Under the pieces are notes generated by a model that was given only the letters and a program-made list of their open reading frames with translations, was not told the origin of the DNA and did not search any database. The translations under genes and the position numbers were made by a program. A stretch of DNA of 64,000 nt from an uncultured Gammaproteobacteria bacterium. Its GTDB lineage: Bacteria > Patescibacteriota > Patescibacteriia > Patescibacteriales > UBA12465. The stretch is from positions 7,870 to 71,869 of the forward strand of contig CAYXNV010000001.1 in assembly GCA_964466835.1 (NCBI GenBank), written 5' to 3'. This document shows positions 8,021-34,539 of this stretch, piece by piece; position 1 is the first letter of the stretch, and each line of letters opens with the position of its first letter.

Positions 8021-8692
8021 TTAACTTTTTTGGCTCTTTAAATTTTTTTGTTTCCATTTTTCTATTTCTTTATGATTTCCAGAGAGTAGCACTTTGGGGA
8101 CAGAATATTTTTTTTTGTTGATTGTAAATGTTTCTGGGCGAGTATATTGAGGATATTCAATAGAATTTTCTTTTGAGTGGGATTCATCGGTTAGGCTGTC
8201 TTTGTTTCCTAAGACATTAGGGAGTAGTCTAGTGATGGAGTCAATCATAGTTAGGGCTGGTAATTCACCACCAGTTAAAACGTAATCACCAACTGATATT
8301 TTTTCATCAATAAATTTTTCTATTCTCGCATCCACTCCTTCATATCTTCCGCAGATAAATATTACTTCTTCTAGTTTAGAATATTTCTTAGCTAAGTTTT
8401 GATTCCATTTTTTACCTCCAGGGGATAATAGGACGATTTTTCTTTTTTTATTTACTTTTTTCTTCTTAATAATATGTTGTATCGCTTTATAGACTGGCTC
8501 TACCTTCATTAACATTCCCGCCCCACCACCATAGGGAGTATCATCAACTGTTTTGTGTTTGTCAGTTGCCCATTTACGTAGGTTGTGGATTTTAATATTA
8601 ATTTGTTTCTTTTCTTGGGCACGCTTAAGAATGCTTTCATTCAAATATGAATCAAATATTTTAGGAAAAATTGTTATTAGATGAAATTTCAT
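8021..8692 (-). CDS. trmD: tRNA (guanine37-N1)-methyltransferase
   Basis: It contains MKFHLITIFPKIF, DDTPYGGGAGMLMK and DYVLTGGELPA. Confidence 0.95.
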   Translation of the reverse strand: MKFHLITIFPKIFDSYLNESILKRAQEKKQINIKIHNLRKWATDKHKTVDDTPYGGGAGMLMKVEPVYKAIQHIIKKKKVNKKRKIVLLSPGGKKWNQNLAKKYSKLEEVIFICGRYEGVDARIEKFIDEKISVGDYVLTGGELPALTMIDSITRLLPNVLGNKDSLTDESHSKENSIEYPQYTRPETFTINKKKYSVPKVLLSGNHKEIEKWKQKNLKSQKS

Positions 8693-8754: not shown

Positions 8755-9072
8755 TTAGATTTTTAAATCATCAATCGCAGAAGTGTCAACCTCTTCCTGG
8801 CGAGGAGCGCTAGGACGGTTACCTCCTTCTGGATCATAAATTTTTAAGTTAACACGAGAGTTGTTCTTTGCACCAACGATTTTCAATAAAGTTCTGATCG
8901 CTTGCGCAGTTTGACCTTTACGGCCAATAACGTAACCCATGTCGGCTGGATTGATTTTAAGGGTCAATAGGACGCCTCTTTCATCAATCGTTCTTTCTAC
9001 GGCCACATCGTTTGGATTACCAACAATGTTTTTTACAATGGTTTCTAGAAACTGCTTGTCTTGATCTTCCAT
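8755..9072 (-). CDS. KH-domain RNA-binding protein (YlqC-like) with C-terminal extension
   Basis: The KH core reads VIGRKGQTAQAIRTLLKIVG. The gene sits in the conserved position after rpsP. Confidence 0.8.
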   Translation of the reverse strand: MEDQDKQFLETIVKNIVGNPNDVAVERTIDERGVLLTLKINPADMGYVIGRKGQTAQAIRTLLKIVGAKNNSRVNLKIYDPEGGNRPSAPRQEEVDTSAIDDLKI

Positions 9073-15289: not shown

Positions 15290-16122
15290 AGTTCAGTAAT
15301 TTTTACTTTTTCAACTTTCTTAACTTTTTGTTCTAAAAATTTTTCCGCCATTTTTTTAAATTGGCCTGGATTATCAGTTGTATAAAGTTTATATGATGGC
15401 TTAGTAACTGATTTTATATTTAATTCAGCATGTCGTTGCAGATAGTCTTTTAAACTTTTGGTAATTATTTCACCTGGATGGGGAACCTCAATTTGATTAC
15501 CCATTATTTTTTTAATTTCTTTATACAAAAAGGGATAGTGGGTGCAAGCCAGGATCAAAGATTTAATTTGCTTTATTTTTAATGGTCGTAGATATTTTTT
15601 TAATATCATTTTAGTTTCGGGTTTTTTTATCCACCCCTCTTCTATTAGGGGGACTAATAAAGGGGTGCTTTGTTGATAAACTTTTAGCTTTGGATTGAGT
15701 TTATTTATTTCCAAAGGATAAGAATTGGATTCTATGGTTGCTTTAGTACCAATTACTCCAACCGGACCAGTTTTATCATTACCCACCTCTTCCACTAGAG
15801 GCCTGATTACCCCTAAAATTCTTCGATCAGGATATTTAGTAGGAAGATATTTTTGTTGCAGAGTACGTAAAGCTTGAGCAGAAGCAGTATTACAAGCAAC
15901 AATAATTAAGCCACAGCCCTGCTTAAACAAAAATTCAACTGCTTCACGAGTATAATTATAAATAGTCTCGGGAGATTTTTCTCCATAGGGCACTCGAGCA
16001 TTATCACCCAAATAAATATAATTATAATTAGGTAATTCTTTTAGGAAGTGTTTAAAAATACTTAATCCGCCCAAGCCAGAATCAAAAACACCAATTATAT
16101 TTTTATGTGATTTTTTTAACAT
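15286..16122 (-). CDS. murI: glutamate racemase
   Basis: Motifs are VFDSGLGGLS and LACTHYP. I prefer the ATG at 16122 (MLKKSHKNIIGVFDSG) over the track's extended start at 16230, which lies inside murD. Confidence 0.85.
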   Translation of the reverse strand: MLKKSHKNIIGVFDSGLGGLSIFKHFLKELPNYNYIYLGDNARVPYGEKSPETIYNYTREAVEFLFKQGCGLIIVACNTASAQALRTLQQKYLPTKYPDRRILGVIRPLVEEVGNDKTGPVGVIGTKATIESNSYPLEINKLNPKLKVYQQSTPLLVPLIEEGWIKKPETKMILKKYLRPLKIKQIKSLILACTHYPFLYKEIKKIMGNQIEVPHPGEIITKSLKDYLQRHAELNIKSVTKPSYKLYTTDNPGQFKKMAEKFLEQKVKKVEKVKITEL

Positions 16123-17433: not shown

Positions 17434-20172
17434 TTATTTTAATTCTCCCCAATTATTACCCTGACTTTGATCTACTATGATAGGAGTTTTCAATTTAATT
17501 ACTTCTTCCATGATTTTTTTTATTTTTTTACTATAAAAAGGAATCTTATCCTTTTTTATTTCAAAAATCAACTCATCATGAACTTGTAGTATCATTTTAA
17601 TTTCTTTTTCCTGATCAGCAATTAATTCGTTTACTTTTACCATTGCCATTTTTATTAAATCAGCTGCTGTCCCTTGGATAGGAGTATTAATAGCCATTCT
17701 TTCTGCTCCTTTTCTTACGGGAACAATATTAGAGTTGATTTCTGGTAAGGGCCGCTTTCTTCCAAACAGGGTGATAGCATAACCGTTTTTTTGTGCTTCT
17801 TTAACAAATTTATCCACCATTCTTTTTATGCCAGGGTAGATGGTAAAGTATTTTTTGATAAATTCATTAGCTTGCCAATAAGGGATAGATGCACTTTGAC
17901 TAAGACCGTGAGGCCCTTGTCCGTACAGAATGCCAAAATTAACTGCTTTAGCTTCTCGGCGCATATTTTTACTCACCTTATCTAATTTTACCCCATTTAT
18001 TTCAGCAGCGGTGGTAGAGTGAATATCTTCATTATTTTTAAAAGCAGCAATCATCTTTTTATCATTAGACATGTGAGCGGCCAAACGTAATTCAATTTGT
18101 GAGTAATCAAAGCCAACTAATTGATAATCCTTTTTGGCCACAAAAGCTTCTCTGATCTTTCTACCCTCATCGGTTTTAGTGGGAATATTTTGTAAATTAG
18201 GTTCGGTTGAAGATAGTCGTCCAGTAGCAGTGATAGTTTGGTTAAAATTACTATGAATTCGTTTGGTTTTAGAATTGATCATGGTTGGTAGGGCATTTAA
18301 ATAAGTGGTTTGAAGTTTGTTTAGCTCACGATATGATTGGATTAAAGAAATAATAGGGTGTAGTTCAAATAATTTAACTAATTCTTCTTCAGCGGTAGAA
18401 AAGCCAGTTTTAGTTTTCTTTATTCCTTCGGTAGGGATCTCCAATTTATCAAATAAAATTCCTTGAAGTTGTTTGGGGGAGTTGATATTAAATTTAGTTT
18501 TAGCTAGACGATATATGTCTTTTTCTAATTTATTAAGTTTAGTGCTTACTATTTTATTTAAATTAACAATTGGTTTACTACTAAAACCAATGCCACTGTT
18601 TTCCATTTTACCCAGAACTGTAATCAGAGGTATTTCTATTTTATTCAATAGATCAATTAAATTTTCAGTTTGGATTTTTTTCTTTAATATATTGACTAGA
18701 CGATTAGAGAAGTCAGCATCTTCACAGGCATATAAACTTAGTTTATCAGGATCTAATTCTTTAAAGTCTAAAGTTAATTGTTTCGGTTGACTGTCAGCTA
18801 AATTATTTTTATTAATTTTTTCAAAACCAAGCTCAGAAAAGACTAGAGAATCTAAATTGTGTTGGCGATTACTAGGATTGAGGAGATAGGAGGCGACCAT
18901 TGTATCAAAAGCTATGCCTTTTAATTCTATGTTCTGATTTTTCAATACTCGCCAATCAAATTTTAGATTGTGTCCATATTTTTTTATCTTGGGATTAGCT
19001 AAAATTGGGGCTAATTTTTTAAGCCAAGTTTTTTTAGCTAGCACAAAGTAGGCTTCACCTTTTTGCCAAGAAAAACTAATGCCCAAAAGTTCAACCGTAA
19101 TTGGGTCTAAGCCAGAAGTTTCTGTATCTAGAGTAAAGGCCTTTTGAATTTTTAATTTTTTTAAGAAAACATTAAATTTTTTATCATTATCAATTAATTG
19201 GTACTTAAAATCTTTTGCATTACGAGCAAATTTATCTTCTTTTTCTTCTTGACTATCAGGATTAGCTTTATCCATTCTATCTCTCAGTTCTTTTACTTTA
19301 TTTAATAGAGATTTAAAGTTTAGATCACTAAATATATTTAAAACTTTATCAACGGGGAAAGAGGCAAAGGCAGCTTCGGGCAGAGAAAATTTAAAAGCAA
19401 TTTTACGCTGGATGGTTGCTAGTTTTTTACTTAAGTAAACATTCTTTTTTGAGGTTTTTAACAATTCTGAAGTCCGGGGTTTTATTCTCTGGTCATTTTT
19501 AGCAACAGCCTTATAGATATTTTCAATATTTTTGAAATTAATTAATAACTCAATCGCTGTTTTCTCGCCAATACCTTTAGCGCCAGGAATATTATCACTA
19601 GGATCACCTCGTAGAGCCTTGTAGTCAATAATTTGTTCTGGACTTAAATTATATCTTTCTCCTACTTTATCTTCATCATAGAGGATGCTATCTGATAAAC
19701 CCCGGCTCATGGTGTATACTTTAGTTTTTTTATCTATTAATTGCAGGGTGTCAAGATCGCCAGTTATGATAATCCGCTCTAATTTTTTTTCTTCTTTAGT
19801 TTTTTCACAAATAGCACCAATCAAATCATCAGCTTCATAGCCACTTTTTTCAAAAATGGGAATATTAAAAGCTTTAACCACCTCTTTTACTAAAGGAATT
19901 TGTTCATATAGCTCATCAGGCGCTTTTGTTCTAGTGGCTTTATAATCTTCATATTCTTCATGGCGAAAAGTTGGACCAGCTTTATCCAAAGTCAAAACAA
20001 CGAATTCTGGTTTAAATTCGTTTAATGATTTTAACAGGAAAGAGGTAAAACCATAGACAGCGTTCACTAATTGTCCTTTGCGTGTCCTAAGAGTAGGAGG
20101 TAAAGCGTGAAAACTACGATGAATTAAGGCATTTCCGTCAATAATTATTAACTTTGGTTTAGTTTTAGACAT
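17434..20172 (-). CDS. polA: DNA polymerase I (5'-3' exo, 3'-5' exo-like and polymerase domains)
   Basis: This 912-aa protein contains LIIIDGNALIHRSFHA, DYSQIELRLAA and LQVHDELIFE. Confidence 0.95.
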   Translation of the reverse strand: MSKTKPKLIIIDGNALIHRSFHALPPTLRTRKGQLVNAVYGFTSFLLKSLNEFKPEFVVLTLDKAGPTFRHEEYEDYKATRTKAPDELYEQIPLVKEVVKAFNIPIFEKSGYEADDLIGAICEKTKEEKKLERIIITGDLDTLQLIDKKTKVYTMSRGLSDSILYDEDKVGERYNLSPEQIIDYKALRGDPSDNIPGAKGIGEKTAIELLINFKNIENIYKAVAKNDQRIKPRTSELLKTSKKNVYLSKKLATIQRKIAFKFSLPEAAFASFPVDKVLNIFSDLNFKSLLNKVKELRDRMDKANPDSQEEKEDKFARNAKDFKYQLIDNDKKFNVFLKKLKIQKAFTLDTETSGLDPITVELLGISFSWQKGEAYFVLAKKTWLKKLAPILANPKIKKYGHNLKFDWRVLKNQNIELKGIAFDTMVASYLLNPSNRQHNLDSLVFSELGFEKINKNNLADSQPKQLTLDFKELDPDKLSLYACEDADFSNRLVNILKKKIQTENLIDLLNKIEIPLITVLGKMENSGIGFSSKPIVNLNKIVSTKLNKLEKDIYRLAKTKFNINSPKQLQGILFDKLEIPTEGIKKTKTGFSTAEEELVKLFELHPIISLIQSYRELNKLQTTYLNALPTMINSKTKRIHSNFNQTITATGRLSSTEPNLQNIPTKTDEGRKIREAFVAKKDYQLVGFDYSQIELRLAAHMSNDKKMIAAFKNNEDIHSTTAAEINGVKLDKVSKNMRREAKAVNFGILYGQGPHGLSQSASIPYWQANEFIKKYFTIYPGIKRMVDKFVKEAQKNGYAITLFGRKRPLPEINSNIVPVRKGAERMAINTPIQGTAADLIKMAMVKVNELIADQEKEIKMILQVHDELIFEIKKDKIPFYSKKIKKIMEEVIKLKTPIIVDQSQGNNWGELK

Positions 20173-20241
20173 ATATTAATTTTATCATTTTTAGGGAGTG
20201 GGAGCAAAAGGAATTTATAAAAAATTATCATAAGATAAAAT

Positions 20242-20269
20242 AAAGGCGCCGAATAGGGGCGCCTTTTTT
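20242..20269. terminator. GC-rich terminator-like hairpin upstream of polA
   Basis: The sequence aaaGGCGCC-gaatagg-GGCGCCtttttt has T-runs on both strands. Confidence 0.5.
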
Positions 20270-20339
20270 ATACGCTTGCGCGTGGGAAGTTTTATTCACT
20301 CTTGTGAAAAACAAAAAATAGAAATTTGTCTTTACCTAA

Positions 20340-20508
20340 GTAGGCCATAACGTCCTTCTCCAGGTATCCATCTTTGATTTCAAAGGGGAGAAAACGTTAG
20401 CGTGGATACTCATTAAGGTTAACCATGCTTTTTGCCTGCAACCCTCTTCGCTTAGTTCAAGGCTGTCGAAACAACCAGGAAGGAGCCAAGGAGGGACAGG
20501 AAGCCTAC
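20340..20508. ncRNA. unassigned structured RNA candidate A (family not recognised)
   Basis: The segment is GC-enriched and ORF-free. A closing helix forms between 20340-45 and 20503-08. An 11-bp hairpin spans 20349-20398. Its loop (20364-70) is complementary to 20403-09, giving a possible pseudoknot. A second 16-bp arm spans 20435-20500. Confidence 0.45.
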
Positions 20509-20629
20509 AAAATAAAGATCTTAGAAAACAATAGATTGTCTCCATCACGATCTTGTTTTTGTAAAAGAAAATGAGTTTGTGTCGTTAAACGACAAATAGT
20601 CTAGCTACCTTGTAGCTTTTCTGTGAAAC

Positions 20630-20910
20630 TAGATAGGGTTGAGATTAAGTCGCCAAGTCCGTAAAACCAAAATTATCTTTATGGTTTTTCTCTTTTGCCT
20701 TTTTATGCAAGCAAATGGATGCGAAAACGAATCGCAAATGGTCGCTTTCGGTTTAGGCAGTAGAGTTAATGGATTTGACGGTATAATTGCGGCGAGCGCA
20801 TCTAATTCCACAGAAGGGAATAACAATGAACGAATATAGATCATAACCCCTCTGTTTTGGTGTAATTAAATTATACATAGAAATAATTAAAAGTCAATTA
20901 TCTTTATATA
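20630..20910. ncRNA. unassigned structured RNA candidate B (some RNase P-like motifs; not confirmed)
   Basis: The segment is GC-enriched. Helices form at 20663-69/20682-88, 20720-24/20732-36, 20788-91/20797-800 and 20810-18/20848-55. There is no credible ORF. Confidence 0.35.
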
Positions 20911-20916
20911 AAAGAA

Positions 20917-20936
20917 GCGCCTCAAATATGAGGCGC
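20917..20936. terminator. GC-rich terminator-like hairpin
   Basis: The stem-loop is GCGCCTCA-aata-TGAGGCGC. On the minus strand it is followed by ttcttttatat. On the plus strand it is followed by ctttaggtttgtt. Confidence 0.5.
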
Positions 20937-21012
20937 CTTTAGGTTTGTTAGATCTTTTTGTAAGTTTTTTAAAAAGATAATTTCCGCAATAGTCGCGGTA
21001 GGGGCATTTTAG

Positions 21013-21187
21013 TTCTGTTTACCAGAATCGGGCTTATAGTCTGTCACTCTATCAAGCCCTCAAGCTAGCCGAATTTAGTTTTGCGGCTAGAGTTGAGTGA
21101 TGATCCGGCAAATACCAGCCCATTCATGCAATTGTTTTTTTGGTGAAATAGTTTTACGGGCAGGTAGCCTATCAATGGTAAACAGAA
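21013..21187. ncRNA. unassigned structured RNA candidate C (or MITE-like element)
   Basis: A perfect 12-bp closing helix forms between 21013-24 and 21176-87. Nested helices lie at 21030-34/21166-70, 21065-71/21084-90 and 21114-21/21158-65. Confidence 0.45.
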
Positions 21188-21347
21188 GGTTTCGGGCTCC
21201 CTTAAAAACGGGAATGGTAAAGTACTATTCATGATCCTCCTGTTTGATTATGCTTCTATATTGGCAAATTATTCAAAAAAAGTCAATATTAGGAGTTTAT
21301 TTAACATTTCTTTGTTTTCTGGTAGAATTAGAGGGAAGATAAAATAT

Positions 21348-22337
21348 ATGAAAAAAGTAGGATTATTTTTTGGCGGATTAAGTAATGAAGCTGAAGTTTC
21401 AATTATGTCCGCTAAAAATATAGTTAAAAGTTTTGATTATAAAAAATATAAATTAGTCTTAATCTATTGGCATAAGCAAGATGGTTATTTTTATAGAGTA
21501 AAGAATATTAATAATTTGAAGGTTGTTAAAAAAGATAGAATTCAAATTGAAAATTTTTCTAAAATTTTTGATGTTGCCCTATTAATGACTCATGGCCGTT
21601 ATGGTGAAGATGGTGTTTTGCAAGCAATGTTAGAGGGCCAGGGGATTAAATATTGTGGTTGTCGTGTTTTAAGTTCAGCTGTTTGCATGGACAAAGGAGT
21701 TTTTAAAGATTTATTAATTTCTAAAAATATCAGACAAACTAAATACTCAGTTTTGGATTATAAAAAATTTAGTGAAAGAGAAATACAAGCAGAAAAGAGT
21801 AGAGTTAGAAAGAATTTTAAACTTCCGTTATATGTTAAGCCGGCTAATTCAGGCTCTTCGGTTGGCATAAGTAAAGTAGAGAAGTATAAAGATTTAGATT
21901 CAGGTATTAAGCTAGCTTTGAAGCATGATTCTAAAATTGTAATTGAAGAAGGTTTTATAAATGCTAGAGAGATAGAGGTGGCGGTGTTAGGGAATAATAA
22001 ATTAAGAATTTCTAAGCCTGGTGAATTGAAATTAGTTAAAGATTTTTATAATTACGATGATAAATATAAATTAGGACAAGCCCAAAGCATTATTCCTGCT
22101 AAATTAACTCCTGCTCAAGTCAAAGAAATACATAAAATTGCCAAAGAAGCTTATCAGCTTTGTAATTGTCAGGGATTTGCTCGAATAGATTTTTTTGTTC
22201 ATCGAAATAAAATATATCTTAACGAAATTAATACTTTGCCCGGCTTCACTGATATCTCTATGTATCCAATGTTGATGATGAGTACGGGTATGAGTTACAA
22301 AGAACTAATTAATGCGATTATAAAGCTGGGATATTAA
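21348..22337 (+). CDS. ddl: D-alanine--D-alanine ligase
   Basis: The start MKKVGLFFGGLSNEAEVS is preceded by the SD gagggaag. Further motifs are HGRYGEDGVLQ and EINTLPGFT. The track's start at 21231 is an unsupported extension. Confidence 0.9.
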   Translation: MKKVGLFFGGLSNEAEVSIMSAKNIVKSFDYKKYKLVLIYWHKQDGYFYRVKNINNLKVVKKDRIQIENFSKIFDVALLMTHGRYGEDGVLQAMLEGQGIKYCGCRVLSSAVCMDKGVFKDLLISKNIRQTKYSVLDYKKFSEREIQAEKSRVRKNFKLPLYVKPANSGSSVGISKVEKYKDLDSGIKLALKHDSKIVIEEGFINAREIEVAVLGNNKLRISKPGELKLVKDFYNYDDKYKLGQAQSIIPAKLTPAQVKEIHKIAKEAYQLCNCQGFARIDFFVHRNKIYLNEINTLPGFTDISMYPMLMMSTGMSYKELINAIIKLGY

Positions 22338-34176: not shown

Positions 34177-34539
34177 ATGAGACTACTTTTACTTTTCTTT
34201 ATTTTTTCTGCTATTTTTTCAAATAGTGTTTTTGCTCAGAGTAATGCCCTAGATAGTATTCCAAGCGATACTCTGAAAATATCTGAAAAAAATGAGGCTG
34301 AAATTATCTTCCCGAACCCCTTTGAAGATCAATTAACAATTGTTTGTCAGGAAGCAGACATTGAAATTGTTAGTCTGGTTGGCAAAAAAATTTACACCGG
34401 CAAGGTCAAGAAAAGGTTAATTATTAAAACTACAGATTCTAAATGTCAACGAGGCTTATATTTCATAGTAATTTATATGCCTAGTAAAAAGGGAATAGTT
34501 GTTCCTAAAGTTGTCACCCGAAAAATTATTAAAAAATAG
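34177..34539 (+). CDS. small secreted protein with T9SS-type C-terminal sorting-domain-like sequence
   Basis: The signal peptide reads MRLLLLFFIFSAIFSNSVFA. The segment FPNPFEDQLTI...IEIVSLVGKKIY...RGLYFIVI...KIIKK matches the Por-secretion-tail pattern. Confidence 0.55.
   Translation: MRLLLLFFIFSAIFSNSVFAQSNALDSIPSDTLKISEKNEAEIIFPNPFEDQLTIVCQEADIEIVSLVGKKIYTGKVKKRLIIKTTDSKCQRGLYFIVIYMPSKKGIVVPKVVTRKIIKK

Follow-up and report, generated by a model that had tools for sequence, protein, structure and literature searches.

In type I toxin mRNAs and in some dual-function small RNAs (sRNAs), translation is gated by competing RNA folds. Type I units such as hok/sok and AapA1/IsoA1 of Helicobacter carry an open reading frame (ORF) of less than about 70 codons in a stable, highly folded mRNA of 300-600 nt, in which the Shine-Dalgarno (SD) box is sequestered by an anti-SD segment early in the coding sequence and a long-range helix is formed around the ORF; they occur in tandem copies, diverge fast and are patchily present at a fixed intergenic site. 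Dual-function sRNAs such as RNAIII (hld) of Staphylococcus, SgrS/SgrT and SR1/SR1P are long multi-hairpin RNAs with a promoter and a terminator of their own, a small ORF in one part and extra hairpins outside it. By analogy of the proposed mechanism, these are the systems that most resemble RNA-1 and RNA-2, two tandem units upstream of polA in the 64,000-nt stretch of a Patescibacteria genome analysed here (contig CAYXNV010000001.1; the window), and the features listed for both groups recur in their sequences and predicted folds. Positions 20340-20508 of the window had been singled out by eye as a closed multi-helix RNA with a possible pseudoknot (the original prediction). We read this flagged domain, with about even confidence, as a lineage-specific structured 3' module of RNA-2, a small-ORF RNA whose translation would be gated by folding, that is, as a non-conserved accessory module of one member of a family.

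The flagged domain and its predicted transcript

The structure at 20340-20508 is real and unusual. The four sets of pairings that had been read from the letters were all found in place, and the domain they form is laid out as follows.

20340..20508, minus strand: flagged domain, with a long arm (20500-20435), a weak middle hairpin (20428-20400) and a 50-nt hairpin (20398-20349)
20508-20503 with 20345-20340, minus strand: optional closing helix of the domain
20409-20403 with 20370-20364, minus strand: candidate pseudoknot of the domain

The closing helix pairs GTAGGC (20340-45) with GCCTAC (20503-08). Within the 50-nt hairpin, AACGT (20349-53) and TTCTCC (20356-61) face GGAGAA (20387-92) and ACGTT (20394-98) and enclose an inner CTTTG/CAAAG stem (20372-76 and 20381-85), while in the long arm CCTG (20435-38), CCCTC (20442-46) and GGCT (20461-64) pair with AGCCAAGGAGGGACAGG (20484-20500). 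The candidate pseudoknot strands, GTATCCA (20364-70) and TGGATAC (20403-09), are an exact 7-bp match.

The minimum free energy (MFE) of the 191 nt from 20330 to 20520 was -59.3 kcal/mol on the plus strand and -62.5 kcal/mol on the minus strand, with z-scores of -3.67 and -3.71, and 0/200 and 1/200 dinucleotide shuffles, respectively, folded as well. The expectation of an unusually stable, multi-helix, RNA-like structure was thus borne out on both strands. As the domain had been chosen in a by-eye survey of 64 kb, this choice was offset by a background scan of 336 segments of 190 nt over the whole window and both strands, with 40 shuffles each. The scan gave a mean z of -0.39 (sd 1.22, minimum -4.2), with 2.1% of segments at -3.5 or below; by the same 40-shuffle method the domain scored -3.9 (plus) and -5.4 (minus), which places it in the top 1-2% of the 64 kb. 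The other top-scoring segments included the tRNA cluster and two neighbours of the domain in the same intergenic gap. The domain has a GC content of 48%, while that of the window is 33%.

The long arm (20500-20435) and the 50-nt hairpin (20398-20349) were retained in every fold context; the 6-bp closing helix was lost to local alternatives when a 363-nt or a 631-nt transcript was folded. The nested fold plus the pseudoknot duplex gave -59.8 kcal/mol, compared with an MFE of -56.9 kcal/mol, with no penalty charged for the pseudoknot, and since the usual penalty of about 7-9 kcal/mol would reverse this gain, the pseudoknot is not energetically favoured. The chance of such a 7-mer match among the unpaired stretches was estimated at roughly 0.01-0.09, and on this modelling the 7-bp pseudoknot is possible, yet unsupported. 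In each of the two robust arms, a pyrimidine tract of anti-SD type (CCCUCCUU, UUCUCCCC) is paired with a purine tract that resembles an SD box (GAAGAGGG, GGAGAAGGA), which echoes the 5' motif of the RNA family described below and suggests an origin by local duplication. At the 3' edge of the domain (20343-20361, minus), GGAGAAGGA is followed after 4 nt by the AUG of an 18-codon ORF (MAYLGKDKFLFFVFHKSE); its SD-like box is sequestered within the 50-nt hairpin, and the arrangement is probably coincidental.

The domain is part of a 1058-nt gap without genes that separates polA (17434-20172, minus) from ddl (plus). The signals in this gap point to an independent minus-strand transcript of about 620 nt, RNA-2, predicted to run from about 20863 to 20240 and made up of the following parts.

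20870..20897, minus strand: promoter of RNA-2 (TTGACT, 16-nt spacer, TATAAT), with an inferred start at about 20863
20842..20855, minus strand: 5' motif ACAGAGGGGUUAUG, an SD-like box and then AUG
20629..20844, minus strand: small ORF of 71 codons (MIYIRSLLFPSVELD...)
20810..20820, minus strand: pyrimidine anti-SD box UUCCCUUCUGU inside this ORF, able either to pair with the SD box or to begin the long-range helix
20800..20815, minus strand: 5' strand UUCUGUGGAAUUAGAU of the 16-bp long-range helix, which covaries with RNA-1 and with the unit of the relative L053
20619..20634, minus strand: 3' strand AUCUAGUUUCACAGAA of the same helix, which includes the stop codon of the ORF
20506..20563, minus strand: long hairpin, from predicted folds, that separates the ORF domain from the flagged domain
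20242..20266, minus strand: RNA-2 intrinsic terminator with a GGCGCC stem and a U-run, a hairpin that has the form of a terminator in the plus-strand orientation too

The promoter matches the sigma-70 consensus at 11/12 positions and is the best promoter-like site within 20100-21300. The hairpin at 20269-20242 reads as an intrinsic terminator, in keeping with the original prediction, and would end RNA-2; relatives carry equivalent terminators immediately upstream of the polA promoter. Between the domain and this terminator lies the small hairpin ACGCGCAAGCGU (20272-20283, minus), whose GCAA loop is of the GNRA type.

The domain alone shows no strand preference (-56.9 vs -56.7 kcal/mol), in agreement with the earlier remark that its strand could not be deduced from its pairings, and the strand call rests for this reason on context. 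The 631-nt fold from promoter to terminator gave z = -10.0 on the minus strand and -4.2 on the plus strand, and the 16-bp helix (20815-20800 / 20634-20619) contains two G.U pairs, in whose place the plus strand would have A.C. The promoter, the G.U pairs and homology to relatives all favour the minus strand, one of the two options originally left open; they contradict the other, a plus-strand RNA followed by the hairpin at 20602-20622, which is a weak 6-bp stem. Nor is the domain a discrete element of 169 nt: it lies 120 nt 3' of the RNA-2 stop codon and forms the 3' part of a predicted RNA of about 620 nt, the conserved part of which is the 5' third.

A small-ORF RNA family upstream of polA

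Syntenic loci of relatives were collected through polA. This gene places the window in Patescibacteria, with Candidatus Falkowbacteria as the closest named relatives, and the best non-self polA (P0002, locus L053) shares 78% identity with it. One collected locus (L065, a Logan contig of the public sample SRR8146440) belongs to the same strain as the window, being 99.986% identical over 7330 nt; in it one indel splits polA into pieces of 140 and 758 aa (L065 2249-4988), which is probably an assembly error. Upstream of RNA-2, the gap holds a tandem paralogue with the following parts.

20912..21276, minus strand: RNA-1, predicted transcript from about 21245 to 20912
21276-21247, minus strand: promoter of RNA-1
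21243-36, minus strand: SD box ACAGGAGG
21232-21065, minus strand: 55-codon ORF
21187-76 with 21024-13, minus strand: long-range helix of RNA-1, perfect, 12 bp
20938-20915, minus strand: terminator of RNA-1

The first ~110 nt of RNA-1 align clearly with the unit upstream of the L053 polA (L053:2656-2970), with a local alignment z of 13.4; the corresponding values were 4.6 for RNA-1 with L056 and 3.7 for L053 with L056. Common to RNA-1, the 5' third of RNA-2, L053 and L056 are an AUG preceded by ACAG(R)nGG, two boxes (UUCCC and then CCUUCUGU) and a long-range helix that begins in the second box and ends about 130-165 nt downstream at a distal ACAGAA. The SD-AUG motif takes the form ACAGGAGGAUCAUG in RNA-1, ACAGAAGGACCAUG in L053 and ACAGAAAGG..AUG in L056. 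Two further loci, L057 and L146, show a variant of the plan, the latter having been reached through the one called ORF (P0121) that a family profile search returned. Members of the family, as we define it, have a 5' SD-like box with AUG and an ORF of 55-71 codons whose first ~20 codons contain anti-SD boxes; their long-range helix is anchored at CCUUCUGU, and they lie upstream of polA with a promoter and terminator of their own. The 5' third of RNA-2 (20862-20619) has every one of these features; the flagged domain (20508-20340) lies outside the conserved core and carries none of them.

RNAalifold on four 5' modules paired the SD-like box with UUCCC in 4/4. As a whole-unit MAFFT alignment fails past the 5' ~110 nt, the long-range helix was registered by hand in three sequences (RNA-1, L053 and RNA-2). 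In this alignment 88% of the cells pair and 7/14 pairs are changed on both sides; none of 500 shuffles did as well, and slid registers reached 36-50%. With three sequences and manual registration, this covariation is supportive, not conclusive. The unit folds gave z-scores of -5.1 (RNA-1), -5.4 and -6.3. In L057 (~2588-2597 with ~2748-2758), and at the equivalent place in L146, the block GCACCGGGGAGCGGUGC just past the stop codon has UCACUGCUCCC in codons 10-13 as its predicted partner; this block is better conserved than the C-terminal half of the ORF, and the helix would be another that encloses the ORF.

The flagged domain itself had no relative by nhmmer, by blastn or by local alignment with shuffles. 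Its covariance model (R1) found only the domain, at 217.8 bits, and the best other hit reached 14.8 bits on the wrong strand, in a search of 50 sources with default filters, eight of which (the family loci) were repeated with filters off, and of L153 with filters off. A test of covariation in its helices, proposed with the original prediction, cannot be passed by a domain that has no homologue in the relatives examined, and the idea of a conserved, closed and pseudoknotted domain is not supported. RNA-2 as a whole, searched by nhmmer and blastn against all collected loci, matched only itself and L065, and among the same loci a profile of RNA-1 and L053 matched only its own members. As the closest syntenic relative, L053, has a single unit of 310 nt, RNA-2 and its 3' extension appear to be lineage-specific additions.

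At the gathering score, Rfam 15 found only tRNAs in the whole window. At E<=10, the region 20100-21300 gave terminator-driven chance matches only, the best inside the domain scoring 12-13 bits against gathering scores of 33-39, and no covariance-model match near the gathering score was obtained for the known families (OLE, ROOL, GOLLD, raiA, 6S, RNase P, tmRNA and others). The large RNAs OLE, ROOL, GOLLD and raiA of Bacillota and phages are comparable to RNA-2 in size (~600 nt), in strong predicted structure and in forming a GC-rich island in an AT-rich genome. RNA-2 differs from them in having no match even at E<=10, in the very narrow conservation, in the maintained ORF and in the lack of a phage match: phage records had no blastn match to the 631-nt RNA, and two family motifs gave 0 matches and 6 chance matches without the SD-AUG motif in viral contigs. 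RNase P RNA, tmRNA, 6S RNA and signal recognition particle (SRP) RNA were considered and rejected for lack of an Rfam signal and for the wrong architecture. Literature searches for non-coding or small RNAs of Patescibacteria (Candidate Phyla Radiation, CPR) brought up no described RNA regulator. As no Rfam family, riboswitch or large non-coding RNA class matches, we describe the units as a new family; judged by sequence, it would be a family of structured small-ORF RNAs restricted to a narrow clade of Patescibacteria and found there nowhere but upstream of polA.

The family ORFs, taken from AUG, are 55, 71, 59, 62, 59 and 59 codons long. Each is improbable by chance (P = 0.012-0.057, with 0.012 for the 71 codons of RNA-2), and for this reason they look maintained when taken together. 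Between L057 and L146, frame 0 has 29/58 identical residues, 14 of them via synonymous differences, with indels of +3 and -3, as compared with 16/56 (0 synonymous) in frame 1 and 20/57 (7 synonymous) in frame 2. Against coding, the conserved UUUCACC block is shifted by 8 nt relative to AUG between RNA-1 and L053, the codon-usage score of the small ORFs of the window is -0.05 to -0.15 vs 0.39 +/- 0.13 for real genes, and their GC content at third codon positions is 0.39-0.48 vs 0.18-0.29. The 71-aa product of RNA-2 had no homologue among 1.84 billion representatives, the sole match being a repeat-rich protein of 1211 aa, and the family proteins had no Pfam, NCBIfam or PADLOC match. By inspection, the peptides are proline-rich and also cysteine-rich and lack a clean transmembrane helix. 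These observations are most simply reconciled by a translated small ORF, the N-terminal ~25 codons of which alone are constrained, by the peptide and by the anti-SD RNA boxes, embedded in an RNA whose fold is under selection. An ORF of L073 with the motif FLFPS was tried as a family member and discarded as a chance match, and a precursor of a ribosomally synthesised and post-translationally modified peptide, considered from sequence, is unlikely, as no modifying enzymes lie nearby.

Conservation in the family centres on the 5' part, with the SD-like box and AUG near the 5' end and the ORF of 55-71 codons. The anti-SD boxes (UUCCC and CCUUCUGU) fall within the first ~20 codons, and the long-range helix starting in the second of them encloses most or all of the remaining ORF. 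The SD:CCUUCUGU pairing and this helix overlap by up to 6 nt, so that they compete or stack, and from this overlap we infer that the two may contend for the same bases and that translation would be gated by folding. The flagged module would then act at the RNA level, either by stabilising or folding the transcript or as an additional set of regulatory hairpins; we do not regard it as sensing a ligand or as regulating polA.

Patescibacteria have tiny genomes, and the ~1 kb given to two tandem, strongly folded small-ORF RNAs suggests a real function. The units have defined promoters, terminators and ORFs as well as a covarying helix, so that assays of expression, translation and toxicity can be designed directly, which makes the family new and testable in an understudied phylum; the flagged domain itself stands outside this comparative support, and its function is only inferred.

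Proposed control of polA and rival readings of the domain

The gene downstream of the terminator has a promoter of its own.

20173..20207, minus strand: polA promoter (TTGCTC, 17-nt spacer, TGaTAAAAT, 6 nt, ATG at 20172)

On the minus strand the domain is followed by an intrinsic terminator and then by polA, an order that recalls riboswitches and attenuator leaders, where a structured RNA and an intrinsic terminator precede a gene of the same strand. The original prediction had pointed to this riboswitch-like layout, which implies a pseudoknotted aptamer in a cis-regulatory polA leader that controls the 20269-20242 terminator; we consider this extremely improbable. The polA promoter lies downstream of the terminator. 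There is no SD box in the 45 nt before the ATG, and as this ATG stands 7 nt after the -10 box, the polA mRNA is predicted to be leaderless; for the same two reasons a read-through transcript would be poorly translated. The promoter block is kept in every relative examined, with or without the upstream RNA, and L060, L062 and L067 have it while lacking an RNA unit altogether. From its sequence, polA is most simply read as leaderless and driven by its own promoter, and the upstream terminator would close a separate transcript that starts ~520 nt upstream of the domain. It is this conserved promoter, placed for a leaderless mRNA, on which the riboswitch reading fails. Moreover, ~75 nt separate the domain from the terminator, no alternative anti-terminator pairing is evident in the folds, and nhmmer, blastn, the covariance model and Rfam gave no match that would identify a conserved, covarying aptamer or a known riboswitch. 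Unlike in the known leaders, the element here is the tail of a longer, ORF-carrying transcript.

A different account of the domain would make it a degenerate third tandem unit (2b), with a weak promoter at 20627-20598 and a 69-codon ORF from AUG 20545 to UAG 20336 inside the GUAGGC/GCCUAC helix, which we regard as rather unlikely. The frame concerned is the following.

20336..20545 (or 20548), minus strand: open frame of 69-70 codons (METIYCFLRSLFCRLPVPPW...) across the flagged domain, with no SD box and of doubtful status

This frame spans the domain exactly and is the longest of the 3' region (P of about 0.06 by chance); its AUG falls within the 20563-20506 hairpin, the 5' strand of the closing helix lies at codons 13-15 and the 3' strand just ahead of the stop, as in RNA-2a (the 5' unit of RNA-2) and L057, the promoter-like TTCACA-18-TAGACT matches at 9/12 positions, and the implied size of ~350 nt agrees with RNA-1. 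Set against this, no SD box precedes the AUG, the N-terminal motif of the family is absent (hhalign probability 0.2% against the family profile), local alignments gave no significant nucleotide similarity to any unit, no protein homologue was found for the 69 aa, the codon-usage score of -0.15 is atypical next to 0.39 +/- 0.13 for real genes, and there is no terminator between 2a and 2b. That the domain is functionless itself, a fortuitous or relic structure in a fast-evolving, GC-enriched and duplication-bearing spacer with pairing SD-like and anti-SD-like tracts, is in our judgement unlikely. Its absence from all relatives, including the syntenic L053, the sensitivity of the closing helix to context, the lack of an energetic preference for the pseudoknot and the 2% of background segments at z <= -3.5 would all fit such an origin; yet the 191-nt MFE of -62.5 kcal/mol comes near the -68 of the tRNA cluster segment, selection for structure is indicated by two long near-perfect arms in a genome of 33% GC, and the domain lies within a unit bearing strong transcription signals.

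A more ambitious view, which we find decidedly unlikely, takes the tandem units as CPR-specific translation-gated RNAs, type I toxin-antitoxin-like or ribosome-engaging and regulatory, in a genome where SD boxes are otherwise mostly missing, and the domain as a functional pseudoknotted 3' module controlling the maturation, stability or refolding of RNA-2. It seems improbable that RNA-2 is a dual-function RNA of the RNAIII kind, with a 5' peptide and 3' hairpins that pair with target mRNAs or titrate a protein. The multi-hairpin RNA of ~620 nt with a small ORF at its 5' end and the pyrimidine-rich CCUCC and UCCCC tracts in the domain would suit such a role, but these tracts are paired in stems and not exposed in loops, most genes of the genome have no SD box to be targeted, and there is no conservation. 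RNA-2 further differs from RNAIII, SgrS/SgrT and SR1/SR1P in lacking an Rfam match, exposed C-rich loops and known targets, and the 3' module here is not conserved even in the nearest relatives.

Several points weigh against the reading that we favour, a 3' module of a folding-gated small-ORF RNA. No homologue of the module was found, comparative support for its helices is lacking, and its sequence may be neutral. The single 620-nt transcript is a prediction, as are its promoter and terminator. The family is small, with about 6 lineages, its covariation alignment consists of three hand-registered sequences, and two members fold weakly (z = -2.3 in L057 and -0.55 in L146). The 69-70-codon frame over the domain leaves room for a coding or third-unit reading, and the peptides are not typical membrane toxins. 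An antisense RNA partner was not found, the only candidates being a plus-strand TATAAT (20782-20787) and the bidirectional terminator at 20915-20938. This TATAAT is perfect, has no good -35 box and lies antisense to the 5' part of RNA-2; together with the terminator it could give an antisense RNA of ~130 nt over the SD box and AUG of RNA-2, similar to a type I antitoxin.

Membership of the units among type I toxin-antitoxin systems is accordingly not established. They have the RNA architecture, with an ORF of 55-71 codons in a stably folded RNA and predicted intramolecular SD sequestration. In contrast to hok/sok and AapA1/IsoA1, they have no identified antisense or antitoxin RNA and no toxin-family match in Pfam, NCBIfam or PADLOC, their peptides are proline- and cysteine-rich in place of a clean hydrophobic helix (by inspection), their predicted lowest-energy fold leaves the SD box weakly paired, and the flagged 3' module has no counterpart there. 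The lesson of the domain is that a strong thermodynamic structure and a neat pseudoknot candidate alone do not show a conserved functional RNA.

Neighbouring features and translation signals

Among the relatives (L053, L056, L057/L058, L146, L066, L153, L059 and L064 vs L060, L062, L067 and L054), the polA-upstream spacer forms a hotspot of variation. Depending on the relative it contains structured small-ORF units (one or two), tRNAs (L067), almost nothing (L062), a small secreted-looking protein on the opposite strand (L054) or a 374-aa gene of unknown function (L060). On the other side of the gap, the plus-strand ddl ORF (21231-21348 side) is 368 aa long when called mechanically, and the ddl of relatives are 329-339 aa. 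The true start is probably near 21348, which would leave the RNA-1 promoter intergenic and back to back with the ddl promoter.

In the background scan, folds with z near -4 were also seen at 15581-15770 (minus), in the murD/racemase overlap region, and at 34201-34390 (minus), at an SD-bearing gene of 120 aa. SD boxes are rare in the window, being present in 2/40 long-ORF genes (8755..9072 and 34177..34539), and many genes (e.g. at 8692, the 36063-side 34621, 43680 and 20172) have a TATAAT-like box 6-8 nt before the ATG. These signals suggest widespread leaderless or SD-less initiation in this Patescibacteria genome, and RNA-1 and RNA-2, as rare SD-bearing transcripts amid mostly SD-less or leaderless genes, may offer a probe of translation start in the lineage.

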